A stretch of 64,000 bases of DNA from Desulfobaccales bacterium (GCA_049580385.1 JBAUPV010000030.1:577721-641720), one strand, 5' to 3'. Positions 21,601-44,335 are shown, counted from the first letter of the stretch. Numbers and translations are program-made. Notes: a model not told the origin generated them from the sequence alone.

Positions 21601-22096
21601 ACAGCGCCGCCATAACTTCGAGCGGGTGGAACTCGACTACTCCCCGGAAGAGGCCCAGAGAGAGGCGCAGCGTTGCTTGCGGTGCGACGTCTGCATCCGT
21701 TGCGGCGCCTGCGAGCGGGTTTGCCGGGATACCATGCAGGTCTATGCCCTGAAGTTTACCCAGATCAGCCCCACGGAGCGGGTGCTCAGCGACTACCACC
21801 GGGCCCGGGAGCGCTGTATCGCCTGCGGCGCCTGCGCCCTGATATGCCCCACCGGGGCCATCGACTACCTGGAGGGGCCGGAGCACCGGGAAATACGCCT
21901 TTGCGGCACCGTCTTAAACCGCCTCGAGGAGCCCAAATGCCCCGGTTGCGGCGGCCCCTTGCCTCCGGTCCGCTATCTCGATTATGTCGCCTCCCACAGC
22001 GACGCGGTCACAGGCAAGCAGGTGCTGCGCCGGTTCTGCTCCGCTTGCGCCCGGGAAAAACGGGCCCAGGAGTTTGTCAACCTGGCCGGGACCTAG
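18695..22096 (+). CDS. Fusion flavo-Fe-S protein: NuoF-like (degenerate) + GltD-like NAD(P)H:FAD oxidoreductase + 2x[4Fe-4S] ferredoxin
   Basis: NuoF-like VVNAAPPFPS...LLLEGCPHQVLEGIILAAK. GltD-like CP...CHAACPAGIDIPSYM...NPFPWVCGLICPHPCERSCVRG, VAVVGSGPAGLSCA, VVIIGGGNAAMD. C-terminal CLRCDVCIRCGACERVC and CIACGACALICPTGAI. The ORF opens at GTG 18683; the ATG at 18695 follows GAGGTGAGGA. Confidence 0.8.
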   Translation: MMVAQYAPIQINIFTFPGKGLEEAEGVRDAFMAALKERALDELGPLDVQLMGWRGIEGRDVMVEVRQNGDSSLYELVTPDMASRIVQSHLEEHRPVQRWAVGKDFEAYYEGQTVRISELLGKIDPLSLEDYQDYDGYKSLLSFYSQGFDSFLQKVVASGFCEFSRTRSLPCGTAWCTFRAEKQRPLLVVNAAPPFPSATADLLLLEGCPHQVLEGIILAAKTLQAEVAVVYLPANAPLAVERLQAAWTRLTESRILPEAVPLKLIIISGESRFMVEDENQFIQALQSLLPRDLLTKYGGSPFLVHSLGTLASLPFIAQTPVSVFRKLGIACSSGTMIFRLMGAVETPGFVEVAVSSTLEEVINGPGGGFRHGRKPKAVLVGGPLGGVFPLHLLKLSLNHETLLEMGGSLALGTIQVLDERDCIVALALEQFEFILQQPGAQCSTCRAGLLTVKDLLHRVASGEAGPDALEELERACVALKKKAGCHLGSQAVNPILTSLHYFPDEYRMHTDNKHCPARVCPKLLLAPCHAACPAGIDIPSYMALVAQGRFVEALEVIRQDNPFPWVCGLICPHPCERSCVRGNLDQPLNIKYLKAFVADYATRHGEYAPLQPEAPNGHRVAVVGSGPAGLSCAHYLTLQGYAVTVFEALPEAGGLFIAGIPEYRLPREVVRKEVELIRSLGVEIRTAVTVGRDVTLEELRRRGYEAFFLGIGAHLGYKLKIEGENDFPQVYDVISFLRQVNLGNKLKPADKVVIIGGGNAAMDAARTCVRLGCREVHVSYRRTKKEMPAHPEEIEQALEEGVQIHFLTVPIKIGGEQGRVQYLECLRAELGRPDASGRRRPISIADSNYLIEVGAVITAIGQQPDLCPFPVPPVETSPWCTIVTEKGSTSTSVRDIFSGGDAVTGPATAVEAIAAGKQAALEIHHFLSRDQGPLPQARPQKRGRVPFLAIPAEEKIANQRVPTPFLDMEQRRHNFERVELDYSPEEAQREAQRCLRCDVCIRCGACERVCRDTMQVYALKFTQISPTERVLSDYHRARERCIACGACALICPTGAIDYLEGPEHREIRLCGTVLNRLEEPKCPGCGGPLPPVRYLDYVASHSDAVTGKQVLRRFCSACAREKRAQEFVNLAGT

Positions 22097-22140
22097 TCCC
22101 TGGCCGTCCCTGGATGTCGATCCACCCTTCTTATTTAAAT

Positions 22141-22206
22141 GTAGGATAAAGACCGACTTGGGGGCTGGTAAGAGTCCTATGGAAAAATCAGACTCATGCG
22201 GACAGC
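22141..22206 (+). promoter_or_regulatory. 66-nt conserved element, copy A
   Basis: GTAGGATAAAGACCGACTTGGGGGCTGGTAAGAGTCCTATGGAAAAATCAGACTCATGCGGACAGC. Aligns without gaps to copies B, C and D. Ends 212 nt upstream of the ATG at 22419. Confidence 0.75.
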
Positions 22207-22418
22207 TTTTCAACCTGGGCTGTGAGAGTTTAGGGGCGTGAAGAAATGAGTTTTCCGAAGTTTGCCGATCAGCAGAGCAGTTTTTAAATGTGCGGAGAAT
22301 TTGGCCTGGATGGCCGTCCGTTTCTAAGCCGAGGTTCAGTTTAACTGCTGGCGGCTAACAGCAGGAGCTATCTCCCCGAATTCGCGGCGAACAGCCCACA
22401 TCAGCAAAGGAGAAGAAA

Positions 22419-23582
22419 ATGTCGTATTACATGTATGACGGGTCCACGGAAGTGACTCCCTGGGAAAGGATGTTCGCCACCATGAATGGCGAAAAGCTTG
22501 ATAGGGTCCCGGTGCATCTCTACCCGCGCTGGACCGCTCTCGAATACCTGGGGCTTACCTTCAAGCAGTCATGGGATGATCCCGATCTGTATGCCAAGGC
22601 GCAGATCATGGCTCAGCAGCGGTTCCAGTATGACTGTGCCGTCGACTTCGATATGATGGGACCGGTTGAAGAAGCCATCGGTGCGACCCTCAAGTACCCC
22701 GAGGATGATGTCCCCCAGATTGCCGAGCCCTTCATCAAGACCAAAGAGGACATGAAGAAGGCCAAATGGAAGCTCGATCCGCGCAAAGACGGCAATATGC
22801 CCAAGGTTCTGCACTGCATCAAGAGCCTGAAGTCAGGGCTGATCAAGGCAGGCAACGGCACCCAGAAGGTGCCCATTATGACCTGGGGCAGTTGCCCTTC
22901 CCGGACCGCCGCCTGTCTGACAGGTTTCAAGGAGTGGTTCCTGATCGTCGCCCGGGACCCGGATTGGGCCCTCGAACTCATGCAAGCCGCCATGGACGGC
23001 TGGCTGCAAATGGTCATTGCCGCTCATGAAGCGGGAGCCGACTGCGTTTGGGTCAACGACCCGGTTTCCTCGGCCGACTGCATCTCCAGGAAACATTATG
23101 AAACCTTGACCCAGCCGTTTGAACGCAAGTTCATCGAGGCCATCCGGCGTGAAACCGGTATGAAGATCATCTTCCATCCTTGTGGGAACTGGCATGACCG
23201 TCTCGATCTCGTCTATCAGAACCAAGCCGACGGCTATTTCCTAGGCCCGATGAATATCGATCTTTGCACCCAAAAGGCTGTCGAGGTCAGAGACGCCGGT
23301 CTCAATCCGCACCTGAAGTTCCTTAACGGCAATTTCGGTGCGGCCACCAAGAGTTCTACGGCGGACCGGAAGCCCGTCCCTTATGCCACCACCCTCAAAT
23401 TCGGCACCCCTGAGGAACTTATCGAGGAGAGCAGGATTATCATCGAGACCGTTGAAGGCGGTGGTCTGCGCTGCATGCTCGGCCCCAACTGTTGGGAGCC
23501 GAAGGGGGCCGCTAACATCAACCGCGATGCGGTGGTCTACGCGGCGCGCCGGCACGGCAGTTACCTCAAAAAAGAAGAGTAA
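22419..23582 (+). CDS. URO-D-family methyltransferase (MtaA/MtbA/MtsA-like, Zn type)
   Basis: 387 aa. N-terminal ...ERMFATMNGEKLDRVPV... typical of the family. Zn motif H-x-C (IFHPCGNW) plus downstream Cys (LRCMLGPNCW). Confidence 0.75.
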   Translation: MSYYMYDGSTEVTPWERMFATMNGEKLDRVPVHLYPRWTALEYLGLTFKQSWDDPDLYAKAQIMAQQRFQYDCAVDFDMMGPVEEAIGATLKYPEDDVPQIAEPFIKTKEDMKKAKWKLDPRKDGNMPKVLHCIKSLKSGLIKAGNGTQKVPIMTWGSCPSRTAACLTGFKEWFLIVARDPDWALELMQAAMDGWLQMVIAAHEAGADCVWVNDPVSSADCISRKHYETLTQPFERKFIEAIRRETGMKIIFHPCGNWHDRLDLVYQNQADGYFLGPMNIDLCTQKAVEVRDAGLNPHLKFLNGNFGAATKSSTADRKPVPYATTLKFGTPEELIEESRIIIETVEGGGLRCMLGPNCWEPKGAANINRDAVVYAARRHGSYLKKEE

Positions 23583-23591
23583 ATCGGGAGG

Positions 23592-24236
23592 ATGACGGTG
23601 GAAATATTAGCGGAAATCGCCAAAGCGGTCTATGACGGAGATGAGCCGAAAACACTCGAGCTTGTCAAGAAGGCGATGGCTGAAGGCGTAGGCGCCCAGG
23701 ACATCGTGGATAAGGGGTTGGTAAAGGGGCTCCACGAATGTGGCGCCGGCTACGAGGCCGGAGAGAAGTTCATCCCCGAGATGCTGATGGCGGCTGAAGC
23801 CATGAAGGCCTCCATGGCGGTTCTCAAACCGCATCTCGTGGTCGGGGAGTCCGTCGGCGGCAAGGTCGTGTTGGCCACAGTTGAAGGCGACGTCCATGAC
23901 ATCGGCCTCGAACTGGTTGCCACCATGCTGGGCAGCGCCGGCCTGGAAGTCAATTTCATGGGGCCGGACGTGGAAACATCCCGCATCATCGCGGCGGTAA
24001 AGGAGGACAAACCTCAATTGCTGGGATTATCCGCGCTGCTTACCAACACGATGGATACTATGCCCGTGATCATCAAGAAACTTGAGCAGGAAGGCCTCAG
24101 AAGTTCGCTCAAGGTAATCATCGGGGGCGCCCCGGTTTCTCAGGATTTCGCGGACCTGATCGGGGCGGACGGCTACGCCTACGATGCCGCCGCGGCCGTT
24201 CCGGTGGCGAAAAAGCTGGTGAGCCAAGTGGCCTGA
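23592..24236 (+). CDS. Corrinoid (B12-binding) protein, MtaC/MtbC/MtsB-like
   Basis: B12-binding DxHxxG motif EGDVHDIGLELV, followed by LLGLSALLT and IIGGAP. N-terminal helical cap domain. The true start may be GTG 23598, which has better spacing from GGGAGG. Confidence 0.85.
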   Translation: MTVEILAEIAKAVYDGDEPKTLELVKKAMAEGVGAQDIVDKGLVKGLHECGAGYEAGEKFIPEMLMAAEAMKASMAVLKPHLVVGESVGGKVVLATVEGDVHDIGLELVATMLGSAGLEVNFMGPDVETSRIIAAVKEDKPQLLGLSALLTNTMDTMPVIIKKLEQEGLRSSLKVIIGGAPVSQDFADLIGADGYAYDAAAAVPVAKKLVSQVA

Positions 24237-24271
24237 TGATCCCAAGTTCCCGGTAACCCGTAAGTGATGCC

Positions 24272-24313
24272 AATCGGCTATCTCGTCTTAAACGGGATAG
24301 CCGATTTCTTTTC
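24272..24313 (+). terminator. Rho-independent terminator
   Basis: AATCGGCTATC (24272-24282) pairs perfectly with GATAGCCGATT (24296-24306), followed by TCTTTTC. Lies 36 nt after the corrinoid-protein stop. Confidence 0.7.
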
Positions 24314-24409
24314 ACAAAATCATGTTGTATTAAATAGAGCCTTCCGCCCCCTCCGGGAACTGAGCATTGGAGATGCGGTATCCGTAATATTCAATGGTCG
24401 CAAGGGGAG

Positions 24410-24685
24410 ATGGAAAGGCTTGAGAGAGTGATCTCGCCAAAGTACAACCCCGATCCCTGGAAGAAGTGGATGGACAGGCTCGATAAAATCTATGGAAATG
24501 GTTCCATCTTCGAGAAGATGTATGCCATCGCCCAGGAGGTTCCTGCCAACGCTTACGCCATCGATATAGTTCCGAAACGCTGGTGGAAGCCGAACCCGCC
24601 CTGGTGGAATAACTCCGATACGGCGCCGTGGAGGAGAGGAACCGGCTGCTTCGCGAGATCCCTCGAAAAGAAGACCCCCGGATAG
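24410..24685 (+). CDS. Hypothetical 91-aa Trp/Pro-rich protein (uncertain)
   Basis: ORF in a lower-GC gap between convergent genes. Composition is protein-like (WWKPNPPWWNN), but the SD abuts the ATG. Confidence 0.25.
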   Translation: MERLERVISPKYNPDPWKKWMDRLDKIYGNGSIFEKMYAIAQEVPANAYAIDIVPKRWWKPNPPWWNNSDTAPWRRGTGCFARSLEKKTPG

Positions 24686-24731
24686 CCACTCAGTTGGCGT
24701 CGATCCTGCCAACCCCGTCAGACTTACAGCT

Positions 24732-25607
24732 TTAAGCAGCCTGGCGCGCCCGGAACCCCTTGATCCACTTCATGCCGTGGGGGTCTCTCCCTTCTATCAG
24801 GTCGGCAGCTTGCAGGGCACTCGCTTCTTGCTTTTTTAACGGGTTGCAGATCGGGCAGGTCAAACCGGCTTCCACTGAGAGCGCCAGAAAAACTGCAGTC
24901 AGGGTTTCCCGGTCGGGCATACCAAAGGAGATGTTGGATGCGCCCATGGTAATATTGACCCCGAAGCTGTTGACGATCATGCGTACGGCCTCCAGAACCA
25001 TCTTGCCAGCTCGCCACTCGGTTCCCAGCGTTAAGACGAGAGGGTCGATCACGATGTCCTCGGCGGGGATTCCCAGTTTGCCAGCCTCTTCGATGATCTT
25101 GGCGGCATTCTGAAATCTTTCGTCAGCGGTCTTGGGGATACCGGTATCTCCGCTGCATAGCCCAATGACCGGGCAGCCATACTCTTTAATCAGAGGCAAC
25201 ACCGCCTTGAGGCGCTTGGTTTCCGCACTCACCGAATTCACCAAGGGCCTGGCCCCGTCTTTACAGTAGTAGTTGAGAGCCGCTGCCAGCGTCTCAGTTC
25301 TGGGAGAATCGATGCAGATCGGAAAGTCATCCGTTGCTGCTCTGATTTCCTTGATAATTTGAACCATCAGGACGGACTCATCGGCGCCAGGCACTCCGGC
25401 ATTCACGTCCAGGATCCCGGCCCCCGCGGCAATCTGGGCCAGGGCATCCCTGCGAACCATATCGAATCTGCCCTCGCTCAGTTCAGCCCGCAGCACCTTT
25501 CGGCCGGTGGGGTTTATCCTTTCCCCGATGATCACCACCCCCTGGTCACGGCAGATGCGCGTTTCCTTTTTCGCTGATTTAACTAAAGTAGTAAGATTGG
25601 TCGTCAT
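24732..25607 (-). CDS. Pterin-binding methyltransferase (methyl-H4folate:corrinoid, AcsE/MtrH/MetH-domain-like)
   Basis: VIIGERINPTGRK...AGAGILDVNAG...ICIDSP...LVNSVS, a TIM-barrel pterin-binding signature. Start set at the ATG at 25607 (MTTNLTTLVK). Confidence 0.8.
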   Translation of the reverse strand: MTTNLTTLVKSAKKETRICRDQGVVIIGERINPTGRKVLRAELSEGRFDMVRRDALAQIAAGAGILDVNAGVPGADESVLMVQIIKEIRAATDDFPICIDSPRTETLAAALNYYCKDGARPLVNSVSAETKRLKAVLPLIKEYGCPVIGLCSGDTGIPKTADERFQNAAKIIEEAGKLGIPAEDIVIDPLVLTLGTEWRAGKMVLEAVRMIVNSFGVNITMGASNISFGMPDRETLTAVFLALSVEAGLTCPICNPLKKQEASALQAADLIEGRDPHGMKWIKGFRARQAA

Positions 25608-25897: not shown

Positions 25898-26722
25898 TTA
25901 TTCAGTTACTCCCAGCTTTTTGACTTCATCCATCACGGCGGGTTCCACCACCGGGACGACTGCTTTTTCCTTCTCCATGGCGTCTTTCTCGGGAATTGCG
26001 AAGGTCCCCGGTACCACGGTGACCAAACCATGGATGTTGACTATGGGATAGCCGTCGTGGACCCAACCCCTGAATCCATCAGTGACATTAATGATTTTCC
26101 CGGAATAGCCCATGTCGATCATAATCTTATGGACGATGGCGCCTCGATTGGAACCATTTTCAGGAGTCCCGGCCTTGCACATGAGGTAGTAGGTGGCCGT
26201 GGAGTCCGGGGCGATACTCGGGAGCAGCCAGTAAGCCAGGCCGGTGTCCAGGCGGATTGCTCCGGGGACATGCCCCGCCGCGAATTCCGATTCCATACGC
26301 ACATCCAGGAGGTGAATTTTAGGATTTTTCCAGCCTTCCTGCTCAATCCAAAGTTTGTAGAAATCGTCGGCGGAAATCCCTATGCCATACTGCCACATTA
26401 TGGGACGAAATTCATTCTGGCCGTTTTCGAAAAGCTCCTTGGGGGTCAGGACTGCTCCCGTATGACGCGGAGTCAGGGTTTTGCTGATGATGTAATTCTT
26501 ACCCCGGCCCATGGCCTCGAGTTGTTCCTTAGTCCAGGGCTTCTTGGAAAACTCCAGGATCTGTTTTTCCGTCCAGTCTTTGCTGGGGCCTACGCCCTGG
26601 TCCTGGGCGCCCTGAGCTTTGGCGGCCCCCTCCTCTGCCGCCAAGGCGAGAGAACCAGTGAAGAGAATGGCCACCAAGATGGCAAATACCGATACAACCG
26701 CGCTCCTTCTAAGTTTTTCCAT
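25898..26722 (-). CDS. Exported single-domain rhodanese-like sulfurtransferase
   Basis: Signal peptide MEKLRRSAVVSVFAILVAILFTGSLALAAEE. Rhodanese block HLLDVRMESEFAAGHVPGAIRL and active-site loop YYLMCKAGTPENGSNRG. RBS AAAGGAG before the ATG at 26722. Confidence 0.75.
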   Translation of the reverse strand: MEKLRRSAVVSVFAILVAILFTGSLALAAEEGAAKAQGAQDQGVGPSKDWTEKQILEFSKKPWTKEQLEAMGRGKNYIISKTLTPRHTGAVLTPKELFENGQNEFRPIMWQYGIGISADDFYKLWIEQEGWKNPKIHLLDVRMESEFAAGHVPGAIRLDTGLAYWLLPSIAPDSTATYYLMCKAGTPENGSNRGAIVHKIMIDMGYSGKIINVTDGFRGWVHDGYPIVNIHGLVTVVPGTFAIPEKDAMEKEKAVVPVVEPAVMDEVKKLGVTE

Positions 26723-26966: not shown

Positions 26967-27032
26967 GCTGTCCGGGAGAGTCTGATTTTTTTATAGGATA
27001 ATCCCTCTCCTATAAGTCCGCATTTGTCCTAC
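26967..27032 (-). promoter_or_regulatory. 66-nt conserved element, copy C
   Basis: Minus-strand read: GTAGGACAAATGCGGACTTATAGGAGAGGGATTATCCTATAAAAAAATCAGACTCTCCCGGACAGC. Ends 244 nt upstream of the rhodanese ATG at 26722. Confidence 0.75.
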
Positions 27033-27204: not shown

Positions 27205-27831
27205 CTAAATTTCCCCGGCCCCAGGGCAGGCAGATTTGGGAGCCAGGTTAAATCCGATGAGGATCGTACCTAATTCAGGTTTCCCAGTCTCCCAACCAAA
27301 GTGCTCCTTGAGATAAAGGTCGGCCGATCCCAGGGGCGAGGCCGAGAGAATGTCCTCAACGCCGGGAATCCCTTCTAATTCAGGAAACCTCAAGCCCCGA
27401 AAAACGAAAACCGGCCGTTGACCGGCATTTTGCTTTATTCTGTCATAGTAAACGGCAAAATTCTTGCCGATGACCTTAACCTTCTCGCTTTTTTTCAATG
27501 ATTCCAGGCGCTCCGGGTCACAGACCTCCTCGCCGATGACCACACCACCCATTACCCAGGAGAGGCAGGGCTCCGAGGCGTGCCTGAAGTCATTATTGTT
27601 CAAAACCACGCAGACCATCCGTCTAGCGAGAACAGTTAAAACCCCTTCGTTGCAATACTTGCCTAATCCCCCCAGGCCTCGCTCCTGAAGCTCTTCCTCA
27701 AATCGCCTGAGGATTCCCCGATCGTTCTCATCAATCCAGCCAACAGCCAGTATCCCTCTGGTGTTGCGCAAGGCTTTTTCTACGCTGGGCTTACATTTTC
27801 CCGGGTCATAGCAGCAATTGCCACTAGGCAT
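27205..27831 (-). CDS. Hypothetical Cys-rich protein
   Basis: 208-223 aa, lower GC than its neighbours. N-terminal CCYDPGKC cluster plus scattered Cys. No SD at either candidate start (TTG 27876 or ATG 27831). Family not recognised. Confidence 0.5.
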   Translation of the reverse strand: MPSGNCCYDPGKCKPSVEKALRNTRGILAVGWIDENDRGILRRFEEELQERGLGGLGKYCNEGVLTVLARRMVCVVLNNNDFRHASEPCLSWVMGGVVIGEEVCDPERLESLKKSEKVKVIGKNFAVYYDRIKQNAGQRPVFVFRGLRFPELEGIPGVEDILSASPLGSADLYLKEHFGWETGKPELGTILIGFNLAPKSACPGAGEI

Positions 27832-27942: not shown

Positions 27943-30207
27943 GTGATTCCGGCCCAGGGGCGCTCCCATGTTGGCAAGGGCTCCGCGGGCCTGAGTGGCA
28001 ATATGGGAACCACCGGAAAAAGCAAACCCGATCCTCCTCTCCTGAGGCCCCTCGCTTTTCTGATCATGGCCATGCTTCTGGTCGTTCTTCTCTTGCTGGC
28101 GCTGGTCCGGCAGGACCGTCAGCCTTGGAAATCCTATCAAGAGGCCTACCGCCTAAACCAGGCCCAGAAACTGGCAGAATCGTTGCGAGGTAAGATTCCG
28201 GAAGTGGAGATCCGGGACAGATGCAAAACCATAACCCAGGCGCCTTTCCGGGTGAAAGAACTGAGGCCGATTATTACCGGCAAGGAGGAAAGGTGCCTCA
28301 CCTGCCACGATGGCCTGGAGGAGGTTAGCCCCTCCCATCCGGTGGAGGAATTCGGTTGCGTAATCTGCCACGGGGGTCAGGGAATCGGGGTGACGGTGGC
28401 TGTCGCCCACCAGGGCCTCATCGGCGGCCGCAATCCCTCGGACCTGTCAGTCGCCAGCCAGACCTGCGGCGGCGCAGGGGGGCAATGTCATGCGGGCCGA
28501 AGATTGGTAGCCCAAAACGAGGTAACCCGGGTGCGTTGCGGCGTAATGGCGACCATGAGTGGAGTCATTGCCAGCCTGCGTTACTCGTGGGCGGCTCAAA
28601 CCTCGGATGAGGCCCGCTATGCCTCTGTAGGAGTTAAAAATCCTGCTCCCCAGCCGGGCACTTTAGCTGAATTATTGACGCTTCCCCGGATGGGGCCGAT
28701 ATCTGGAAATGGGCCTGCCGGTTCCGAGGGACTGGTCCCAGCCTCTTCGGGAGAGCTTGCCGCCGATCACTGGCGCAAGCTCTGTGCCTCATGCCACCTC
28801 TGGAACAGAAAAGACCGCGGCCCCTCGGCCCATTCCTCAGGCTGCGCCGCCTGCCACGCTCTCTATAACCCCAAAGCGACCTACGAGGGCGCTGATCCGA
28901 CTCTACCCCGGGGGCAACCCGGTTACTCGAGACTGCACCGCCTGACCACCGCCATACCGGTGAGTCAATGTCTGCGGTGCCATAATCGCTCTGGACGTCT
29001 GGGAATTTCCTACACCGGCCTGGAAGAGGCGGACGGTTATGGCACCCCTTACCGGCAAGGGCGGCCCAACCTGGAGGCCCTCTCGGGAGGTAGAGATGTA
29101 CGCCATTTAGTCCCTGACATCCACTTTGAACGAGGAATGGCCTGTATAGACTGCCATTCCGGCAAGGAAGTCATGGGTGACGGCAACATTTACAGCCACA
29201 TGCGCCAACAGGTCGAAATTCGTTGTAACGACTGCCATGGCAGCTTCGGCCGGCCTCCCCGCACCAAGGTCTTGGGCGCAGAGGATGAAGAGGCCCTCTG
29301 GAGGGCCAGGGCCCTGGGGCTGGGCGATCTCCGGGGCCGGGAGGTGGGAATTACCCGGCGGGGGACGGCTATTTTGAATCTGCGCAAAGAGGATGGCAAG
29401 ATGATCCTCACCAGCAAACTGGACCGGAAAGATCACCTGTGCCCGACCATTACCACTGACCGGGATCATGCCATTCCCGGCCATGGCGCGGATCGCCTGG
29501 AATGCTCGGCCTGCCACTCCCGCTGGGCGCCCCAGTGTTACGGCTGCCACGACTACCGGCATCGCGGTGACCAGGGACTGGATAATCAGACCCAAGTCAA
29601 AACCGAGGGACTGTGGCAGGAAACCAGGGACTATTATCGATTTGACAATCCCACCCTGGGAATCGATTCACGCCAGCGGGTATCCCTGGTGGTGCCCGGC
29701 TGCCAGGTGGTCTATACCGAGTTGGCGCCAGATGGAACGGTGATGGCCGGTAACGACAAAAAAGTGTTCACGGGCGCGGGTATAGGCCACGGTATCGTCT
29801 CAACCCCCATCTCGCCTCATACGACGCGCCCCGAAGTTCGCTCCTGCCAGGAGTGTCATGCCGATCCGAAGACCCTGGGTATTGGGCAGGGCTTGTTCCA
29901 GCCCGGTAAGCGCTGGGCAGCGAACACCTTCGTTTCTTTGGTGCAACCGGAGATCAACCCGCTGGGTTTTGCCTGGGAGAGCCTTGCCGATCCCCAGGGG
30001 CGCCCTTTGGCAGCCACGACGCATGACGGCGCTCGCCCTTTTAATGGGGAAGAATTGAGACGCATTCTCGAGGTGGCCCCCTGCCTTCCCTGTCATGGCC
30101 GTTATGATGATCCGATCTGGTCGAATCCGGCGGCGGCCTTCGTTAGGGCCAAATTGCCATTGCATCAGCGGCAGGTGGGCCGCTGGTTGGACGGAACTGG
30201 AAAATGA
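27943..30207 (+). CDS. Membrane-anchored multiheme cytochrome c (11 CxxCH + 1 CX6CH)
   Basis: TM anchor LAFLIMAMLLVVLLLLALV. CxxCH motifs: CLTCH, CVICH, CASCH, CAACH, CLRCH, CIDCH, CNDCH, CSACH, CYGCH, CQECH, CLPCH, plus CGGAGGQCH. Starts at GTG 27943 after GGGAG (alternative ATG 28003). Confidence 0.85.
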   Translation: MIPAQGRSHVGKGSAGLSGNMGTTGKSKPDPPLLRPLAFLIMAMLLVVLLLLALVRQDRQPWKSYQEAYRLNQAQKLAESLRGKIPEVEIRDRCKTITQAPFRVKELRPIITGKEERCLTCHDGLEEVSPSHPVEEFGCVICHGGQGIGVTVAVAHQGLIGGRNPSDLSVASQTCGGAGGQCHAGRRLVAQNEVTRVRCGVMATMSGVIASLRYSWAAQTSDEARYASVGVKNPAPQPGTLAELLTLPRMGPISGNGPAGSEGLVPASSGELAADHWRKLCASCHLWNRKDRGPSAHSSGCAACHALYNPKATYEGADPTLPRGQPGYSRLHRLTTAIPVSQCLRCHNRSGRLGISYTGLEEADGYGTPYRQGRPNLEALSGGRDVRHLVPDIHFERGMACIDCHSGKEVMGDGNIYSHMRQQVEIRCNDCHGSFGRPPRTKVLGAEDEEALWRARALGLGDLRGREVGITRRGTAILNLRKEDGKMILTSKLDRKDHLCPTITTDRDHAIPGHGADRLECSACHSRWAPQCYGCHDYRHRGDQGLDNQTQVKTEGLWQETRDYYRFDNPTLGIDSRQRVSLVVPGCQVVYTELAPDGTVMAGNDKKVFTGAGIGHGIVSTPISPHTTRPEVRSCQECHADPKTLGIGQGLFQPGKRWAANTFVSLVQPEINPLGFAWESLADPQGRPLAATTHDGARPFNGEELRRILEVAPCLPCHGRYDDPIWSNPAAAFVRAKLPLHQRQVGRWLDGTGK

Positions 30208-32147
30208 GGATTCCGGTAAACCTGAGACTGGCGATGGCTCTCTGCATCTGGGTCGGAGCTGTATGGGCTTTGCCCTGCCTCGGTTCTCCGGCCCCGAGTC
30301 CGGGACCGGAGGTGGGTCATTCTCCAGCGGGCCTTGCGTGTCCCGGTGGCCCTAAAGGCAGATCGGATTGCCCCTGGGCGCCTGGGGGGCTCATAAGCAA
30401 CCCCGCTGATTTAACTCCTGCTGCCCGTACCTGCGGCCGCTGCCATCAAGAACAGGAGCACTGGGTAAAAAGATCCCTCATGGCCACCGCCAGCGGGATC
30501 ATCAACCAGACCCGGTTTCTCTGGGGAGCCCAGCCGGATGCAGCGCCGCGCTATGGGGCTGCGGCAATTGCGGGGCTGCGGCTCCTGCCCACCCAGGAGG
30601 CCTCGGGGGCCCTGGTGGACGACCTGCTCCGCCGCCGCTGCCTGCGCTGCCATCTCGGGGCCTCCGATCCGAGGAGCCCTGAAGGGGCCGCAGGTGATGC
30701 CGGGGCGAAGGGCGGGTCGGCTTGTGCGGCGTGCCATATCGTGAACGAGAGCGAGAGAATTGGGCCGGACCAGAAAGTGCCCGGGAAGGGAGGACAACCA
30801 GGACCTTATCGCCTGACCACATCTGTGCCCACTTCCCAATGTCTCCACTGCCACCGCGAGAATCACGCGGGCGCCGATTACGCAGGACTTTTCGAGCGGG
30901 ATCAATCGGTATCCTCTAACTTTGAGGCCACGGACCCCGGTTTAGTTCCTCAGCTCTATGGCAATTCGTATCACTTCCTGCTGCCTGATATTCATTACGA
31001 ACGCGGGATGCATTGCATCGATTGCCACCCGATGGAAGAAATCATGGGCGAGGGAACCATCCACTCTCAATCTCAGGAGCAGGTAGGCTTACGGTGCACG
31101 GACTGTCACGGCAGCCCGGGGAAACCGCCCCACAGCCGCCGGGTGACCATTGCCGACCAGCGGGCCCTGCGGGCGGCCCGCGCCAATCCCCACTACGATC
31201 TCGAAATCGGCCAAAAGGTTATTGTCACCTCAAAAGGCTACCTGCTGACGAACACCCGGGAAGAGAAAGGAGGCAGGTTCCTGCTGGTGTCCAAGGTTGA
31301 TGGCAAAATACATCAAATTCCGACCCTGGCCCGGGAAGGTCCGGGAAAAGGGCCGCTTGACCATCGCCTCCCCGGCCACCTGAATAAAATGGAGTGCGCC
31401 GCCTGCCATGCCGCCTGGACTTTCCAGGATCTCGGGTTGCACTTGCTGCGGCTGGACGCCGCCGATTACCAGCCCTGGATCTGGCTCACCCAGCAGGATG
31501 ATCCGCAGGCTACACGGATTCTCAGGGAAGAGCTGGTGAAGCCGCCGGGACAGAGAAATTTGCCGCACTCTCGAGACTATCTTACTGGCAAAGCCTCCCC
31601 TGGCATCTGGTTGGCAGGCTACTCCAGGCGCAGCTGGGAGGGGATCATTTTGGGCGTCGATTACCGGGGGCTGGTAAGCGCCTTCCGGCCTCAATATCAG
31701 TATTGGGTCAGCCGGGTGGATGCCGGAGGGCGGGTGCTCCTCGATTCTGTCACCCCGACCACGGCGGCTGGGCGGGCGGCCCTTGCCTGGAACCCTTATA
31801 CCCCCCACACGACCAGGCGTCAGACCCGCGCTTGCTGGGACTGCCACGGAAATACACGCGCCTTGGGCTTGGGTGAGATGTTGATCCGGGCCAAAGATGG
31901 GCAGCCGCTGGGGCTGACCAGGCCAAACGCCGACGGCCTGGGCATTGGGTTCGAGCTGGACCAGGTGATTGATGGGCAGGGGCGGAGCCTGCAGACCACC
32001 ACCAGGCCTGGAGCCGCATTTCTCGATCGAGAGCGGCTTAGGCGGCTGGACGCCGGTAATCCCCTTTATGTGAAATACCTTTTGGAGTATTATGCGAACA
32101 AGGAAGCCTATGGAGATCCCGCGGGTTTCACAGACCCCAAAAAGTGA
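30204..32147 (+). CDS. Periplasmic multiheme cytochrome c (8 CxxCH), paralog of the preceding gene
   Basis: Signal peptide MRIPVNLRLAMALCIWVGAVWALPC. CxxCH motifs: CGRCH, CLRCH, CAACH, CLHCH, CIDCH, CTDCH, CAACH, CWDCH. ATGA start/stop overlap with the upstream gene. Shared blocks include DIH(F/Y)ERGM.CIDCH. Confidence 0.85.
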   Translation: MRIPVNLRLAMALCIWVGAVWALPCLGSPAPSPGPEVGHSPAGLACPGGPKGRSDCPWAPGGLISNPADLTPAARTCGRCHQEQEHWVKRSLMATASGIINQTRFLWGAQPDAAPRYGAAAIAGLRLLPTQEASGALVDDLLRRRCLRCHLGASDPRSPEGAAGDAGAKGGSACAACHIVNESERIGPDQKVPGKGGQPGPYRLTTSVPTSQCLHCHRENHAGADYAGLFERDQSVSSNFEATDPGLVPQLYGNSYHFLLPDIHYERGMHCIDCHPMEEIMGEGTIHSQSQEQVGLRCTDCHGSPGKPPHSRRVTIADQRALRAARANPHYDLEIGQKVIVTSKGYLLTNTREEKGGRFLLVSKVDGKIHQIPTLAREGPGKGPLDHRLPGHLNKMECAACHAAWTFQDLGLHLLRLDAADYQPWIWLTQQDDPQATRILREELVKPPGQRNLPHSRDYLTGKASPGIWLAGYSRRSWEGIILGVDYRGLVSAFRPQYQYWVSRVDAGGRVLLDSVTPTTAAGRAALAWNPYTPHTTRRQTRACWDCHGNTRALGLGEMLIRAKDGQPLGLTRPNADGLGIGFELDQVIDGQGRSLQTTTRPGAAFLDRERLRRLDAGNPLYVKYLLEYYANKEAYGDPAGFTDPKK

Positions 32148-32514
32148 GTAGGGCCAGGGTGCAGCCCATGGCCAGCAGAATCGCCAGATGGATGCTGAAG
32201 CGGTACCTATGCGCCGCATCGGGCTGGGCGGCGCCGGGAACCCAGGGGAGGACGGCGAGCAGGCCCAATGAGGCGAGAGGGATAATCAGTCCCGCCCAGA
32301 GGGCTGGCAGGTAGCGCAGCAGTACTTGAAGCCAGATGATGAGCCAGGGAGCGGTTATTTCGCCCACGGCTCGATTCTCCGGAGTCACCGTGGAATAGCC
32401 TGGAGGCCAGAGCAAGGCCAGCCCTAGCAGAATCAAGGCCAGGAGCATTGCCGCCAGCAATTCTCTGACAATCAGCTCTTTGCGTCTGGCGAATCTGGAA
32501 CGGCTTTCCGGCAT
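32128..32514 (-). CDS. Cytochrome b C-terminal part (b6f subunit-IV/PetD-like), 3 TM
   Basis: 128 aa with 3 hydrophobic helices. GEITAPWLIIWLQVLLRYLPALWAGLIIPLASLGLL aligns by eye to the PetD ...LPEWYFFP.FQILR..PNKL.G.L... region. Overlaps the 3' end of the convergent cytochrome gene by 20 nt. Confidence 0.65.
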   Translation of the reverse strand: MPESRSRFARRKELIVRELLAAMLLALILLGLALLWPPGYSTVTPENRAVGEITAPWLIIWLQVLLRYLPALWAGLIIPLASLGLLAVLPWVPGAAQPDAAHRYRFSIHLAILLAMGCTLALLTFWGL

Positions 32515-32586
32515 TATACCAACTTGCTGGGCAGGAGTTTTCAGTTGGGCGGTGCCAAGACCTTAGCAAACTTGCTAGCCGATTAT

Positions 32587-33066
32587 ATGTTACCGATTAG
32601 AAAAAACAAGCATCCCGAGTCTCGCCCGGGACGTCGCAGATTTGTGCTTTCCCTGGGATGGTCCCTGCTGGGGCTGGCCTTTGCCGGGGTGACCTGGATG
32701 ACCGGGGGGTTCCTCGGTGGGGCTCGGGCCCGCTCAGATCCGGAACCGGCGAATTTCGGTCCCCCCGGCGCTTACCGCATCGGCTCAGTGGTCAAATTGG
32801 GCCGGATAGTTCTCTTGCGAGATGCAACCGGTTTCTGGGCTGTATTTGCCGTTTGTCCCCATTTAGGCTGCCAGCCTGCCTTTGATGAGAACCGGCGGAT
32901 ATTTGTCTGCCCGTGCCATGGAAGTCAGTTCGACCCGGAGGGGCGTTTCCTGGCGGGGCCCGCTAAAAGGGGCATGAGTTTGGCCGCGTTGCGTTTGGAC
33001 AGCCTCGGGGCGCTGGTAGCCTATCCGCAAGAAAAGGTCAAGGCTGGTGACAGGTTTAACCCGTGA
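32587..33066 (+). CDS. Rieske [2Fe-2S] protein with Tat signal
   Basis: PGRRRFVLSLGWSLLGLAFAG twin-arginine leader. Cluster boxes CPHLGC and CPCHGS. Confidence 0.85.
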   Translation: MLPIRKNKHPESRPGRRRFVLSLGWSLLGLAFAGVTWMTGGFLGGARARSDPEPANFGPPGAYRIGSVVKLGRIVLLRDATGFWAVFAVCPHLGCQPAFDENRRIFVCPCHGSQFDPEGRFLAGPAKRGMSLAALRLDSLGALVAYPQEKVKAGDRFNP

Positions 33067-33689
33067 GATTCGATAAGTTCTTAGAGCACATCCATCCGTC
33101 TAAAATTTCGGAAGATCGCATCCGCATAAGCTCCACGTTTTGTCTGGGAGGCGCGGCGTTTTTTCTTTTCATTACCTTAGGCGTTACCGGCCTGCTCCTG
33201 GCCATTTACTATCTGCCCAGCGCCGCAGGGGCCAAGGCAGGGATCCACGATCTAACCTATGTGGTTCCCTTCGGCTGGCTCATCCGCGCCCTTCATTTTT
33301 GGGCCGGCCAACTCATGCTCGTGGCTATTCTTTTGCATACCGGGCGCGTGGTGGCGGCGCGTGCCTACCTACCCCCGCGGCAGGGAAATTGGCTGATCGG
33401 AGTGGCGCTCTTGCTCATTACCGGTGGCCTCGATTTTTCCGGCTACGTGCTGCGTTGGGACTCGCAAACCTTTTGGGCAGCTCAAGTAATGTCTCAGCTT
33501 CTGGAGCGGGTGCCGCTAATCGGCCCTGAACTGCAACAAATCCTGCTGGGCGGACCTCAAATCACCGAGTCCGGACTCTTGCGTTTCTATGCCTTTCATT
33601 GCCTCTTGGGGCCGGTGCTGTGCTTATCATTGATCATGTATCATTTTTGGCGGGTCCGGCGCGATGGGAACCTGGGAAAATCGCTCTGA
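33063..33689 (+). CDS. Cytochrome b, N-terminal (b6-like) part, 4 TM, two His pairs
   Basis: 208 aa. RALHFWAGQLMLVAILLH and FHCLLGPVLCLSLIMYH heme-ligand pairs. GTG start overlaps the Rieske stop. Confidence 0.8.
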   Translation: MRFDKFLEHIHPSKISEDRIRISSTFCLGGAAFFLFITLGVTGLLLAIYYLPSAAGAKAGIHDLTYVVPFGWLIRALHFWAGQLMLVAILLHTGRVVAARAYLPPRQGNWLIGVALLLITGGLDFSGYVLRWDSQTFWAAQVMSQLLERVPLIGPELQQILLGGPQITESGLLRFYAFHCLLGPVLCLSLIMYHFWRVRRDGNLGKSL

Positions 33690-34446: not shown

Positions 34447-34512
34447 GTAGGACAAAAACCGACCAGCCACCGTAAGTAAATCCTATAAATAAATAGGACA
34501 CTTCCCGATTGC
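34447..34512 (+). promoter_or_regulatory. 66-nt conserved element, copy D (most divergent)
   Basis: GTAGGACAAAAACCGACCAGCCACCGTAAGTAAATCCTATAAATAAATAGGACACTTCCCGATTGC. Keeps GTAGGAC, ACCGAC, TCCTAT and TAGGAC at the same columns. Ends 94 nt upstream of the ATG at 34607. Confidence 0.6.
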
Positions 34513-34606: not shown

Positions 34607-34882
34607 ATGAGGCTGAAAAAGATTATTTTCATCGGATTGTGCCTGGTTTTGAGTGCTGGGCTGATCCACCTGAATGTGGGTGTCTGCCAACAGCCCAAGC
34701 CGGATGAAACGGGGACCAAACTGCCTGCGGCTACGCCCGCAGGCAAGACGCCGGCTCCCCAGCCCCCCTGTAACACGCCTGCCAAGGCGCCCGGGGAGGT
34801 CAAACCGGAAAGTAAGCCGGCAGCTCCGGCAATACCTCCGGCCAAGGAACCCGCCAAGCCTGAGGAAAATGAGGGATGTTAG
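34607..34882 (+). CDS. Small secreted Pro/Ala/Lys-rich protein
   Basis: 91 aa. Signal peptide MRLKKIIFIGLCLVLSAGL, then low-complexity PKPDETGTKLPAATPAGKTPAPQPP..., C-terminal Cys. RBS AAAAGGAG. Confidence 0.6.
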   Translation: MRLKKIIFIGLCLVLSAGLIHLNVGVCQQPKPDETGTKLPAATPAGKTPAPQPPCNTPAKAPGEVKPESKPAAPAIPPAKEPAKPEENEGC

Positions 34883-35120: not shown

Positions 35121-35186
35121 GTAGGACAGATACCGACCTTGTGATGGCAAAAGGTCCTATAAGATAATCAGACTCATGCGGACAAT
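35121..35186 (+). promoter_or_regulatory. 66-nt conserved element, copy B
   Basis: GTAGGACAGATACCGACCTTGTGATGGCAAAAGGTCCTATAAGATAATCAGACTCATGCGGACAAT. Ends 155 nt upstream of the ATG at 35342. Confidence 0.75.
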
Positions 35187-35341
35187 ATTTTCCCGGCGTT
35201 TATGCTTATATTGCAGGTGGAAAGGACCGGCTTCTTCGATGGCTTCTTAATCAAAGGAGGGCTGTGGCCGGAAGGGCGGGAGCGGTTTTGCTGTCATGGG
35301 AGTTCGCAGCTAAAAACTTATCCGAAAGGGAGGTGCGAGGC

Positions 35342-36451
35342 ATGAAAAGGGCAATGGTTTTCGGTTTCTTCGCAGTATTGGTGGCAAGCCTGGCCTTGGG
35401 CGCAGGCCCCGTATTGGCGGAGGAGAGTTTCACGGTGGGCTGGCAACCGTATTACATTGACAGTTACTCGCCCGCGATTATTCAGGAACTCCATTTGACG
35501 GATAAATACCTTCCCGGGGTGAAAGTCGAATACCAGGAAGGTTTGCACACTGCCCTGTTTGCGGCCAGAGTTCTGGCGGGCCGGATCCAGGTGGGGTACG
35601 GGGAAGCCAATCCCTTAAACATCGTATGCAGCAATCGGGCCCAAGGCGAGGTCCGGGAAGTTATCTGCACCAGCAACTCACCCGGTCAGCGCTGCGCCTT
35701 GTTGTTGACCCGGCTCGATGCTCCCGACTTCAAGACGCCCCTGGATGCGATGAAATGGCTGGATGGCAAGATCGTCGCCTCCCCCTGGGGCAGTTGCGCT
35801 GACAAGTTTATGCGGATAGCCATGGATAAGCTGCAGATAAAGCCGGCGCAGTACCTTAATCAGAGCATCGAAATTATCAGCACGAATTTCAAGATCAAGA
35901 AGATTGACGCCGCGGCCGTGTGGGAACCGACCGCCTCGAGGGTAGGCACCCTGGCGGGCCTGGGAATCGCCAAGCTGGCTGCTACCGGCGAGGTCTGCGG
36001 CGATAGGGATGTCGGGATGATGATGATGCGCGGCGAATTCATCGATAAACATCCCGATCTGGCGAAAGGTTGGCTCAAGTGCGAACTGGAAGCTGAGCGC
36101 TTCATGGCTGATCCCAATAATTGGCAGAAGGCCGTGGCCATGATCGCCAAACACGCGGTGGGAATGCCCGAGAGGGCCATCTGGTTCGGCCTCTACGGCG
36201 AGATCCCCAAGAACGTTGGTGGAGTTAACCCCAAAACGGTTATGCCATTTACTATTGATGCTGAACTCAACAACTACATCCATGAGCTTTATAAATTCCA
36301 GGTTGCGCATAAGGAGGTTTCTACCGCAGCTCCCCCTGCCAACCTCATTGATGACCATCTCGCGGTGGAGGTGCTGAAGGAAGCCGGCCTGACGTCGCCT
36401 ATCGGCCAGATTAATGCGCTCCCGGCTGATCAAAATCCCTTCAAGCAGTAA
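35342..36451 (+). CDS. ABC transporter substrate-binding protein (NMT1/SsuA/TauA-like, NitT/TauT family)
   Basis: Signal peptide MKRAMVFGFFAVLVASLALGAGPVLA. Size and periplasmic-binding-protein composition fit, and NitT/TauT-type permease and ATPase genes follow. RBS GGGAGG. Confidence 0.7.
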   Translation: MKRAMVFGFFAVLVASLALGAGPVLAEESFTVGWQPYYIDSYSPAIIQELHLTDKYLPGVKVEYQEGLHTALFAARVLAGRIQVGYGEANPLNIVCSNRAQGEVREVICTSNSPGQRCALLLTRLDAPDFKTPLDAMKWLDGKIVASPWGSCADKFMRIAMDKLQIKPAQYLNQSIEIISTNFKIKKIDAAAVWEPTASRVGTLAGLGIAKLAATGEVCGDRDVGMMMMRGEFIDKHPDLAKGWLKCELEAERFMADPNNWQKAVAMIAKHAVGMPERAIWFGLYGEIPKNVGGVNPKTVMPFTIDAELNNYIHELYKFQVAHKEVSTAAPPANLIDDHLAVEVLKEAGLTSPIGQINALPADQNPFKQ

Positions 36452-36556
36452 CGGCTTTTAAGTTTGGGCGCCATACTCCTCTGGCCTGGATGACGGAGGG
36501 TTTTCAGGCCAGAGGAGGCCTTAGGCAAACCAGGTCATTTTAGAGACACACTGAGA

Positions 36557-37483
36557 GTGCCAATGGAACCGGAAGAAATACTCCATTCAGAAGAAGCCCA
36601 GGCCCTGGCCGAGCAGGGAAGGCAACCTCCTGCGCCTGAAGAAGAAGAGATGCAGCCCCTGACGTGGGAAATAACGATGGCCCGCATCAGGCATGCCCTG
36701 CGAACTTCGGCGCCGTACCTGGGAGCATTGGGATTACTGTCCACCCTGCTCGCCTATTGGCTGCTGACGGAAGTCTTTAAGGCGCCGCTGTTCGCCAAGA
36801 TTCCCGGTCCGGTAGCAGTGGCGAACGAATGGTTTTCGCATCATCCCATGTTCGGCATATCCATTTACAGCAGCGTCTATTACCGGCACATTTGGGCAAG
36901 CTGCTGGCGGATTATCCAGGCTTTTCTCCTGGCGACCGTGCTCGGGGTGCCGCTTGGATTGTTCATGGGGTGGAAAAAGGTCTTCAAGGATTATACCTTT
37001 CCGCTTTTTGAATTGCTTCGGCCTATCCCCATGCTGGCTTGGGTGCCGCTGGCGATTCTGATGTTTCCGGGCTACGAAGCGAGCGTTATTTATGTGACCT
37101 TCCTGGGCTCCTTTTTCGTCACCACCCTGAACACCCTTCTCGGCGTCGAATCAATCGATGAGGCCTACTTCAGGGCGGCGCTTTGCTTGGGATCCAAGCC
37201 GCGGCATCTCTTTTTTCACGTTATCCTGCCCGGAGCCCTGCCGTTTATCTTCACGGGGCTGCAAATCAGCATGGGCTACGCCTGGTTTTGCCTGGTGGCC
37301 GGAGAGATGATCGCCGGCAGCTATGGCCTGGGTTATCTTATCTGGAACTCCTACATGCAGTTCCAGGAACCAGTGCTGATAATCGCCATGATCACCCTGG
37401 GATTTTTGGGATGGTTCAGCAGCGCCTTGATCCGCGTGCTGGCCAGGCGCTTGATGCAATGGCAAGTAAGGGAGATGGCTTGA
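36557..37483 (+). CDS. ABC transporter permease 1 (SsuC/TauC-like)
   Basis: 308 aa, 6 TM. EAA-type loop SIDEAYFRAALCLGSKPRHLFFHVILPGALP. Confidence 0.8.
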   Translation: MPMEPEEILHSEEAQALAEQGRQPPAPEEEEMQPLTWEITMARIRHALRTSAPYLGALGLLSTLLAYWLLTEVFKAPLFAKIPGPVAVANEWFSHHPMFGISIYSSVYYRHIWASCWRIIQAFLLATVLGVPLGLFMGWKKVFKDYTFPLFELLRPIPMLAWVPLAILMFPGYEASVIYVTFLGSFFVTTLNTLLGVESIDEAYFRAALCLGSKPRHLFFHVILPGALPFIFTGLQISMGYAWFCLVAGEMIAGSYGLGYLIWNSYMQFQEPVLIIAMITLGFLGWFSSALIRVLARRLMQWQVREMA

Positions 37484-38373: not shown

Positions 38374-38427
38374 CCCGGTGACGGGATTGCCACTGGCGGC
38401 TACGCCAGTTAAGAGGGGAAGTTTTAT

Positions 38428-39243: not shown

Positions 39244-39264
39244 TGCCGGTTACCATAGTAGAGG

Positions 39265-44040: not shown

Positions 44041-44124
44041 ATCGTTCCAACTGGCACCCCGCCAGGAGGCGTTCGCCTAATGCAGCACCTCGGGGCACCA
44101 ACAGTTTTCGGAACCATGCTGCAA

Positions 44125-44133
44125 TGGTATAAT
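44125..44133 (+). promoter_or_regulatory. Extended -10 promoter
   Basis: TGgTATAAT at 44125-44133, with a weak -35. Would give a leader of about 180 nt before the ATG at 44321. Confidence 0.45.
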
Positions 44134-44221
44134 GGAAAAGTCGACCCCGCCAACGCTACGATTTAGGCCCCGCTTTCCTGATCCTGGCGCTGGGGGTTAT
44201 TCCCCGATCAGGGCCTTCGGG

Positions 44222-44335
44222 CTCTGCCGCTGCCACCGGCAAGGCTGAGGTGCGGCGGGAAAATGTGAGAACCCGGGTGAAATGCCCGGTTGGCAAGCAA
44301 CTGCAAAGGCGAAGCCGGTAATGAGTCCGACCATT
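44222..44335 (+). promoter_or_regulatory. Cobalamin-riboswitch-like leader
   Basis: GCCGC (44226-44230) and GCGGC (44252-44256) form a stem that closes onto GGGAAAA. GAGAA follows. Hairpin CCGGG-UGAAAUG-CCCGG at 44273-44289. Then GUUGGCAAGCAACUGCAAAGG. This order matches the remembered B12-element core (AGGGAA / NCCGGUGNNAAUCCGG / GCUG.C..GCA.C.G.AA.GG). The 3' B12 box is only partial (AGUCCGACC, over the start codon). Confidence 0.5.

Follow-up and report, generated by a model that had tools for sequence, protein, structure and literature searches.

The stretch of DNA analysed here, called the window throughout, comprises 64,000 nt from a Desulfobaccales bacterium of the sulfate-reducer type (GCA_049580385.1 JBAUPV010000030.1:577721-641720), and its subject of interest is a set of genes for corrinoid-dependent methyl transfer built around two convergent units. 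One unit encodes a URO-D-family methyltransferase (MT I) and a corrinoid protein (CP), and the other an exported rhodanese-like protein and a pterin-type methyltransferase (MT II). An earlier sequence-only reading had described MT I, CP and MT II as a three-component module. The three genes and the motifs it quoted (IFHPCGNW, LRCMLGPNCW, EGDVHDIG, GERINPTGRK, DVNAG and ICIDSP) are all present at the places given, and all three parts were confirmed; the unit is larger than three components, as it also includes an activase, regulators, importers and the exported rhodanese. The features of the two convergent units are the following:

22419-23582, plus strand: MT I, an MtaA-like URO-D-family corrinoid methyltransferase with a His253/Cys255/Cys358 triad, 387 amino acids (aa)
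23592-24236, plus strand: corrinoid protein with B12 cap and Rossmann domain, DVHDIG motif, 214 aa
24272-24316, plus strand: hairpin and T-run, the effective operon end in the window (terminator scan)
24344-24685, plus strand: 3' remnant of a gene for a DctP-like solute-binding protein with a twin-arginine (Tat) signal, last ~111 codons (locus comparison)
24732-25607, minus strand: MT II, a pterin-binding methylcorrinoid:tetrahydrofolate (H4folate) methyltransferase, 291 aa from the conserved methionine
25898-26722, minus strand: exported rhodanese-like protein, upstream of MT II in the same unit (Pfam Rhodanese, 37 bits)

The open frame of MT II continues to 25760, beyond the conserved methionine at 25607.

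Searches with profile hidden Markov models returned the expected assignments for all three proteins, namely a URO-D methyltransferase, a corrinoid protein and a folate-type methyltransferase. MT I matches the Pfam URO-D family (PF01208) with 131 bits, over residues 14-275 only. The best NCBIfam models are MtaA/CmuA (TIGR01463), with 95 bits against a cut-off of 235, and methylcobalamin:coenzyme M methyltransferase, with 87 bits, and the equivalog models for MtaA and MtbA gave 75 bits (cut-off 600) and 67 bits (cut-off 400), respectively. Since these scores lie below all curated cut-offs, MT I forms a distinct, uncurated clade and is not an orthologue of MtaA, MtbA or CmuA. The profile of the MT I family aligns end to end with the MtaA structure 4AY7 (172 bits), pairing HpCGN with HiCGN and ganC with pGC of that structure, whereas CdmB reaches only 78 bits. 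The AlphaFold2 model of MT I is of high confidence (predicted local distance difference test, pLDDT, 90; predicted template-modelling score 0.90) and its top Foldseek match is again MtaA (4ay7/4ay8; template-modelling (TM) scores 0.78/0.88; E 6.5e-19 for 4ay7), followed by HemE structures (TM ~0.73) and then by the zinc barrels of MetE and MetH. A family-specific insertion of about 21 residues lies between residues 270 and 335, where the confidence of the model is lowest.

The Pfam URO-D match and the alignment of the model to HemE structures could be taken to mean that MT I is a genuine uroporphyrinogen decarboxylase (HemE) which lies next to a B12 protein by coincidence, a reading that the first description had itself named as fatal to its proposal. 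The HemE equivalog model (TIGR01464), however, gave 30 bits against a cut-off of 303, and on this score the HemE identity was rejected. MtaA ranks first among the structures, the metal triad is present, and the operon with the corrinoid gene is conserved in 26 loci. The probability of a HemE is, in our opinion, negligible.

The metal site of MT I had been proposed to be a thiol-type Zn site, which is supported, with a correction of one ligand. Residues H253, C255 and C358 are invariant in all 55 members of the MT I family that were aligned and the His-Cys-Cys set is aligned to that of MtaA; the C-terminal ligand is C358, within GPNCW, and not the cysteine of LRCML as first supposed. The same triad was found in 118 of the 129 nearest cluster representatives at 50% identity. 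In the UroD superfamily His-Cys-Cys marks the S/Se-methyltransferases, whereas O-demethylases have carboxylates or no ligand (Kountz & Balskus preprint, PMC10418091), and CdmB, a relative of the O-demethylases, is without zinc (PMC13222342). MT I keeps both cysteine ligands, i.e., it does not show the O-type site in which a cysteine is replaced by a carboxylate or missing. The comparison supports the view that MT I carries an S-type His-Cys-Cys site, which is proposed to hold Zn.

The corrinoid protein is composed of B12-binding_2 and B12-binding domains (70 and 89 bits in Pfam). Its score with TIGR02370 is 183 bits, below the cut-off of 215, and its best match in the PDB is 1Y80 (176 bits), with 4JGI also close. 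MT II contains a Pterin_bind domain (92 bits) and scores 288 bits with PRK07535 (methyl-H4folate:corrinoid methyltransferase), above the cut-off of 259. The best PDB match of MT II is 4O0Q (131 bits), which we take to be the MT II of a Desulfitobacterium O-demethylase, ahead of AcsE (107 bits). A Zn/thiol-type methyltransferase paired with a folate-type one around a single corrinoid protein had been called typical of systems that deliver methyl groups to H4folate. The architecture, a URO-D MT I together with a pterin MT II, is indeed that known from O-demethylase and Cdm systems, but the S-type metal site is unusual in it.

The MT I and corrinoid genes had been described as ending at a clean terminator, which is true for the window but not for the ancestral operon. 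The plus strand has a 15-bp hairpin stem (24272-24306) followed by TCTTTTCAC, and the region between the two convergent units is not empty, as it holds the remnant of a DctP-like gene. In about 20 loci a third gene, encoding a DctP-like binding protein, is found 3' of the corrinoid gene. When intact (L013) this protein has 454 aa, carries a twin-arginine signal (SRRDFSRI) and matches Pfam DctP weakly but significantly (56.6 bits). The hairpin is kept between the corrinoid and DctP-like genes in all lineages, with different sequences and compensating changes, and because it is conserved as a structure at this place we consider it to be ancestrally intercistronic. In the window a deletion of about 1,040 bp, joined at ~24342/24343, has removed the DctP-like gene from its start codon as far as about codon 340. 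In the closest genome (L016, MT I 97% identical) an in-frame stop interrupts this gene and its RR motif is damaged, and in L003 most of the gene is lost. The DctP-like gene has therefore decayed three times independently in one shallow clade, while MT I, CP and MT II stay under strong purifying selection (ratios of non-synonymous to synonymous substitution of 0.06-0.2 across the three, 0.08-0.22 for MT I).

The rhodanese that precedes MT II was correctly described as exported: its Sec-type signal peptide (…SLALA↓AEE) is conserved, as is a cysteine. Upstream of this unit, and upstream of MT I, we found copies of an element of about 64 nt with the layout of a promoter/operator, GTAGGA…TCCTA…AATCAGACTC…CGGACA, the consensus of which is GTAGGAyAAAnACCGAC-N17-TCCTATaaAAAAATCAGACtC..CGGACA. 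The window contains four copies, while chance alone would give 0.17 occurrences of the core pattern. The four copies lie ahead of the operon of MT I and the corrinoid protein, that of the rhodanese and MT II, a small gene and an ATP-binding cassette (ABC) importer of the sulfonate type, respectively. The element occurs at the same positions upstream of MT I and of rhodanese–MT II in at least 14 related loci, including those with a divergent arrangement. The copies and the further features of the window are as follows:

22141-22204, plus strand: element copy 1, ~215 nt upstream of the MT I gene
26969-27032, minus strand: element copy 2, upstream of the rhodanese–MT II unit
27205-27831, minus strand: conserved 208-aa protein, tentatively of a nitroreductase/BluB-like fold (predicted model)
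34447-34485, plus strand: element copy 3 (left part), upstream of the small exported-protein open reading frame (ORF) at 34607-34882
35121-35184, plus strand: element copy 4, upstream of the ABC importer
35264-40167, plus strand: NitT/TauT-type ABC importer, in the order binding protein, permease, ATPase, permease, ATPase (Pfam NMT1_2, BPD_transp_1, ABC_tran)
44282-46171, plus strand: RACo-type reductive activase with 2Fe-2S, middle and ASKHA domains (RACo_C_ter 242, Raco_middle 150, Fer2 42 bits)
46175-48400, plus strand: histidine kinase (domain scan)
48420-49061, plus strand: LuxR/NarL-type response regulator (domain scan)

The small ORF downstream of copy 3 (34607-34882, plus strand) encodes a Pro/Lys-rich product with an N-terminus resembling a signal peptide, and it may be part of the regulon. 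The binding protein of the ABC importer is TauA/SsuA-like, its nearest structure being TauA (36 bits).

In the window the RACo activase and the kinase/response regulator pair are located about 20 kb downstream of the two convergent units, and the window also encodes an EamA transporter and a YeeE protein. In other genomes this distance disappears. Orthologues of the RACo, kinase, regulator, EamA transporter, ABC importer and YeeE of the window adjoin the MT I, CP and DctP-like genes elsewhere (L007-L014, L018/19, L024): L008 and L009 have RACo orthologues (76% identity) next to the module, L008-L012 have orthologues of the kinase and the regulator there, and in L007, L013, L014 and L024 the genes for MT I, CP and the DctP-like protein are immediately followed by those of the ABC importer. 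The RACo of the window may serve the corrinoid protein of MT I, and the response regulator probably binds the 64-nt element.

The distribution of the genes leads in the same direction. MT I, MT II, the rhodanese and the kinase are present in an identical set of 8 out of 31 related genomes. All eight belong to one genus, seven other members of which lack all four genes (three of these genomes being 90-97% complete). Because of this identical phyletic pattern the two convergent units are tied together far more firmly than by adjacency. The module is a regulon rather than a triplet, and it is distributed as an accessory island.

We looked for riboswitches as another possible means of control. A scan of the window at the Rfam gathering thresholds found none, and E-value scans of the leaders of MT I (22090-22430) and RACo (43950-44400) gave no match, in the case of the RACo leader not even at E <= 1; riboswitch control of the module was rejected on the basis of these empty scans.

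The same data bear on the direction in which the methyl group moves. In a biosynthetic direction it would pass from methyl-H4folate to MT II, to CP, to MT I and finally to a thiol, so that the module would act either as a methionine synthase of a split, MetH-like kind or as a sulfide/thiol methylase with methanethiol as its product. Methylation of a thiol is the natural reaction of MtaA-type enzymes, and split MetH systems that depend on RamA/RACo are known. Moreover, neither the homocysteine-binding domain of MetH (PF02574) nor MetE/core-MetE (PF01717) was found in the source genome, which is 94.6% complete, and among 31 genomes of the order, many of them 97-100% complete, PF02574 was not found in 29 and PF01717 was found in none. 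The module is however accessory: the 23 genomes that do not have it are equally without a MetE match, and all but two of them without a MetH match. No URO-D gene was seen outside the genus among the 31 genomes. The proposal that the module is the methionine synthase of the order was rejected, as it occurs in only 8 of 31 genomes while the gap in MetH and MetE is order-wide; with PF02574 and PF01717 matches missing and URO-D confined to one genus, the methionine synthase of the order is none of the types searched. The module is likewise tied to a two-component system and to importers rather than to a regulation by methionine or S-adenosylmethionine, and Rfam found no riboswitch in its leaders. 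A biosynthetic role thus seems to us quite improbable, and the presence of importers and of an extracytoplasmic sensor kinase argues for uptake and catabolism of a methyl donor.

The MT I family is compact. A word-indexed search retrieved 62 clusters at 90% identity, 48-98% identical to the query, none of which is functionally named; the few named clusters come from Syntrophobacteraceae and from metagenome-assembled genomes (MAGs) of Acidobacteria. A HMMER scan of 1.84 billion cluster representatives found a single full-length MT I cluster (663 bits), and the next full-length cluster scored 189 bits with 35% identity. This second cluster is the family of a paralogue encoded in the same genome as the window, which is 33% identical to MT I and keeps HxC…C. 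The paralogue lies at C13:116000-132000 (L049), where its gene follows those for a Liv-type ABC importer and a corrinoid protein and is itself followed by genes for a 553-aa protein with four rhodanese domains, a Psr/Phs-like molybdopterin oxidoreductase, GrdB-like proteins and a GntR regulator. In a literature search for a named bacterial counterpart we found no paper on the MT I family.

To compare neighbourhoods we used 26 loci from species-representative genomes, which belong to Desulfobaccales, Syntrophobacteraceae, Desulfobacterales and 'delta proteobacterium' MAGs; the range of the MT I family thus covers Desulfobaccales, Syntrophobacteraceae, Desulfobacterales and the Acidobacteria MAGs. 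The MT I gene adjoins the corrinoid gene in all 26 loci, and the rhodanese is paired with MT II in four different locus arrangements. A variant without a DctP-like gene or a pterin methyltransferase nearby was observed in L022, L023, L025 and L026. In three of these four loci an 893-aa sensor histidine kinase, which carries a B12-binding module at its N-terminus, is followed by a major facilitator superfamily (MFS) transporter, a fusion of CoA-disulfide reductase and rhodanese, MT I, CP, a second URO-D protein and a tandem DsrC-like protein; in L026 the second URO-D and corrinoid genes are placed upstream instead. This arrangement resembles a thiol-to-thiol methyl relay.

Other neighbours recur as well. 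In 9 loci the gene of the 208-aa protein is found near MT II and the rhodanese, whereas L026 has it behind the corrinoid gene. The protein had no Pfam or NCBIfam match and no lead in the ESM Atlas, and Foldseek returned nothing at E <= 0.001. Its N-terminal cysteine pair is not conserved. A flavin mononucleotide nitroreductase/BluB-like fold is tentatively suggested by the uniform nitroreductase/BluB-like matches of its AlphaFold2 model (pLDDT 77; VIA Z 8.4, which is in the grey zone of that tool; Foldseek TM ~0.35). In a locus of Desulfobacterales (L019:4199-15260) genes for a multihaem cytochrome, a Rieske protein, cytochrome b and subunit IV are followed by MT I, CP, a DctP-like protein, Usp, DctQ, DctM and TauE/SafE. 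The window has multihaem cytochromes and a Rieske/cytochrome b cluster of the same type (cytochrome b 44% identical) at 27943-33689, a few kb from the module, so that the linkage recurs in two orders.

The rest of the genome was searched for related genes. It contains six URO-D genes and three RACo genes, and only two pterin methyltransferases besides an apparent copy of FolP and an AcsE-like gene beside the carbon monoxide dehydrogenase/acetyl-CoA synthase (CODH/ACS) genes. With these numbers MT II may serve more than one pair of MT I and CP. One of the other clusters (C5:110000-127000, L048) consists, in this order, of genes for a GntR regulator, a URO-D protein (229 bits), a pterin methyltransferase, a DUF1638 protein, RACo, a 742-aa protein and an MFS transporter; the N-terminal part of the 742-aa protein, of about 530 aa, is without assignment, and its C-terminal part is a B12-binding module. 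Since the genome also encodes CODH/ACS (CdhC, with the AcsE-like gene adjacent) and has three methylenetetrahydrofolate reductase genes, methyl-H4folate can be oxidised or assimilated.

Proteins of sulfur metabolism were repeatedly found next to MT I and its relatives. The exported rhodanese accompanies MT II in its four arrangements, and in L022-L026 MT I stands between the CoA-disulfide-reductase/rhodanese fusion and a DsrC-like protein. In Desulfobacterales (L018/L019) the module has YeeE and a TauE/SafE exporter as neighbours, and the sister paralogue on C13 adjoins, as described above, the protein with four rhodanese domains and a Psr/Phs-like molybdoenzyme. These recurring sulfur neighbours, the His-Cys-Cys rule and the TauA/SsuA-like binding protein favour a sulfur substrate.

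That MT II is closest to 4O0Q can suggest another kind of substrate, methoxylated aromatic acids derived from lignin (for example vanillate, syringate or ferulate). The module would in this case be an O-demethylase in which MT I cleaves the aryl-methyl ether, with the TRAP and ABC binding proteins importing the acid. The architecture is the same, a DctP-type binding protein is part of the module, and the relatives come from peat, soil and wetland MAGs, where methoxy-aromatics abound. The metal ligands of MT I are nevertheless His-Cys-Cys, neither carboxylate-containing nor absent, its family profile clearly prefers MtaA to the O-demethylase-related CdmB in the scores given above, and the recurrent neighbours are sulfur proteins and not enzymes of the aromatic ring. 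We consider an O-demethylase improbable, though less so than a biosynthetic role.

A His-Cys-Cys site would suit selenium as well as sulfur, and an Mlp2 enzyme was shown to methylate selenide faster than sulfide (PMC10418091). The module could in that case demethylate another methylated chalcogen or metalloid (dimethylselenide, methylselenol or methylarsenicals), as was proposed for the mlp clusters, and a neighbouring NuoF/GltD fusion does score 350 bits with the YgfK 'putative selenate reductase subunit' model, below its cut-off. However, an organism that scavenges a trace element would seldom require two importers, an H4folate methyltransferase dedicated to the task and a two-component sensor. 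The conserved neighbourhood showed no selenium-specific genes, and type 1 mlp clusters have at least two URO-D genes and no H4folate methyltransferase. We attach as little weight to a selenium or arsenic substrate as to the biosynthetic direction.

We hypothesize, with a probability of roughly 0.5, that the module is an inducible four-component system (MT I, CP, MT II and activase) which transfers methyl groups to H4folate from an imported substrate, likely to be a methylated sulfur compound. The imported methylated substrate would bind to the His-Cys-Cys zinc site of MT I, and MT I would hand the methyl group over to the corrinoid protein in its Co(I) state. From there MT II would move it to tetrahydrofolate, and the Wood-Ljungdahl enzymes encoded elsewhere in the genome would oxidise or assimilate it, while corrinoid that had been oxidised to its inactive form would be reduced again by RACo. 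The shared element, probably bound by the LuxR-type regulator, would activate the MT I–CP, rhodanese–MT II and sulfonate-type importer units at the same time. Of all this, the families, the conserved triad, the common element, the co-inheritance and the purifying selection are observed, and the direction of transfer, the identity of the regulator and the class of substrate are deduced. Candidates for the substrate are methanethiol, dimethyl sulfide or an anionic methyl-thioether, such as methylmercaptopropionate, dimethylsulfoniopropionate or a methylthio-sulfonate. That the substrate is a methylated sulfur compound, possibly an anionic thioether, has about even odds.

Several points weigh against this proposal. 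CmuA-type halomethane enzymes are likewise MtaA-like. TRAP binding proteins usually take carboxylates, to which methoxy-aromatic acids correspond equally well, and the DctP-like binding protein is itself decaying in the clade of the window. It is not obvious what a periplasmic rhodanese would do for a methyl transfer in the cytoplasm, and the hosts are sulfur metabolisers, so the nearby sulfur genes may be there by coincidence. MT I remains under every NCBIfam subfamily and equivalog cut-off, the nearest 50%-identity cluster outside its family is at most 36% identical, and there is no characterised orthologue. In addition, the His-Cys-Cys rule is a correlation taken from one preprint.

A more specific version of the hypothesis is that the module is the methyl-sulfur:tetrahydrofolate system of sulfate reducers (for methanethiol/dimethyl sulfide or an anionic thioether, be it methylmercaptopropionate, dimethylsulfoniopropionate or even methyl-coenzyme M). 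An accessory, co-inherited island of about 25 kb would harbour this system and would couple cytoplasmic demethylation to the exported rhodanese, sulfur-relay proteins, sulfonate-type transport and, in two orders, a chain of multihaem cytochrome and Rieske/cytochrome b. As a whole this version is speculative, and we regard it as rather unlikely.

Systems built from MT I, CP, MT II and an activase that feed H4folate are well known from acetogens and Desulfitobacterium. The module shares with the O-demethylase and Cdm systems (OdmB/VdmB/MtvB/CdmB) the four-part set, the H4folate-linked MT II and an activase of the RACo/RACE type, and differs from them in its His-Cys-Cys site and in its partners, i.e., the exported rhodanese, the sulfonate-type importers and the two-component system. 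With MtaA, MtbA and MtsA of Methanosarcina (4AY7/4AY8) MT I has in common the URO-D TIM barrel, the aligned His-x-Cys…Cys and a partner corrinoid protein with DxHxxG. Unlike these enzymes, to which it is about 20% identical, it has the insertion of about 21 residues and belongs to a bacterial host without methanogenesis; the methyl sink is here H4folate, reached via a pterin MT II, and MT I would act on the substrate side and not on the coenzyme M side. MetH, including its split forms, has pterin and B12 modules homologous to MT II and CP and a chemistry of the zinc-thiolate type, but MT I is a URO-D barrel in place of PF02574, and the module has a patchy, accessory distribution. The type 1 mlp clusters (PMC10418091) are also similar, having a bacterial SCMT-like URO-D protein with His-Cys-Cys, a corrinoid protein, a RACE activase and sulfur neighbours, and a methyl-S/Se role was proposed for them. 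Their two or three URO-D paralogues (Mlp1-3) contrast with the single URO-D protein and the H4folate methyltransferase of the module, and only the L022-L026 variants are mlp-like in having two URO-D genes around one corrinoid protein.

What is new is, first, an SCMT-like branch of MT I with an S-type site that lies outside every curated family, and second, the coupling of this branch to an H4folate methyltransferase, which the mlp clusters lack. Also new are a conserved regulon that comprises an exported rhodanese, a DctP-like protein exported by the Tat route, importers of the sulfonate type and a two-component system of its own, and the distribution of the system as an accessory island.

In peat, wetland and sediment, sulfate reducers and methanogens are competitors for methylated sulfur compounds. 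In the literature searched, genes by which sulfate reducers use methylated sulfur were not found, and surveys count only archaeal mtsA-type genes. The MT I family, which is tight and conserved and has a defined regulon and a recognisable promoter element, is a concrete and testable candidate. Should the substrate be confirmed, the family would serve as a marker gene for a bacterial turnover of methyl-sulfur compounds that diverts methyl groups from methane. If the substrate is a different one, the co-inherited set of MT I, MT II, rhodanese and kinase would still be a clean system for the role of a periplasmic sulfurtransferase in a corrinoid pathway.

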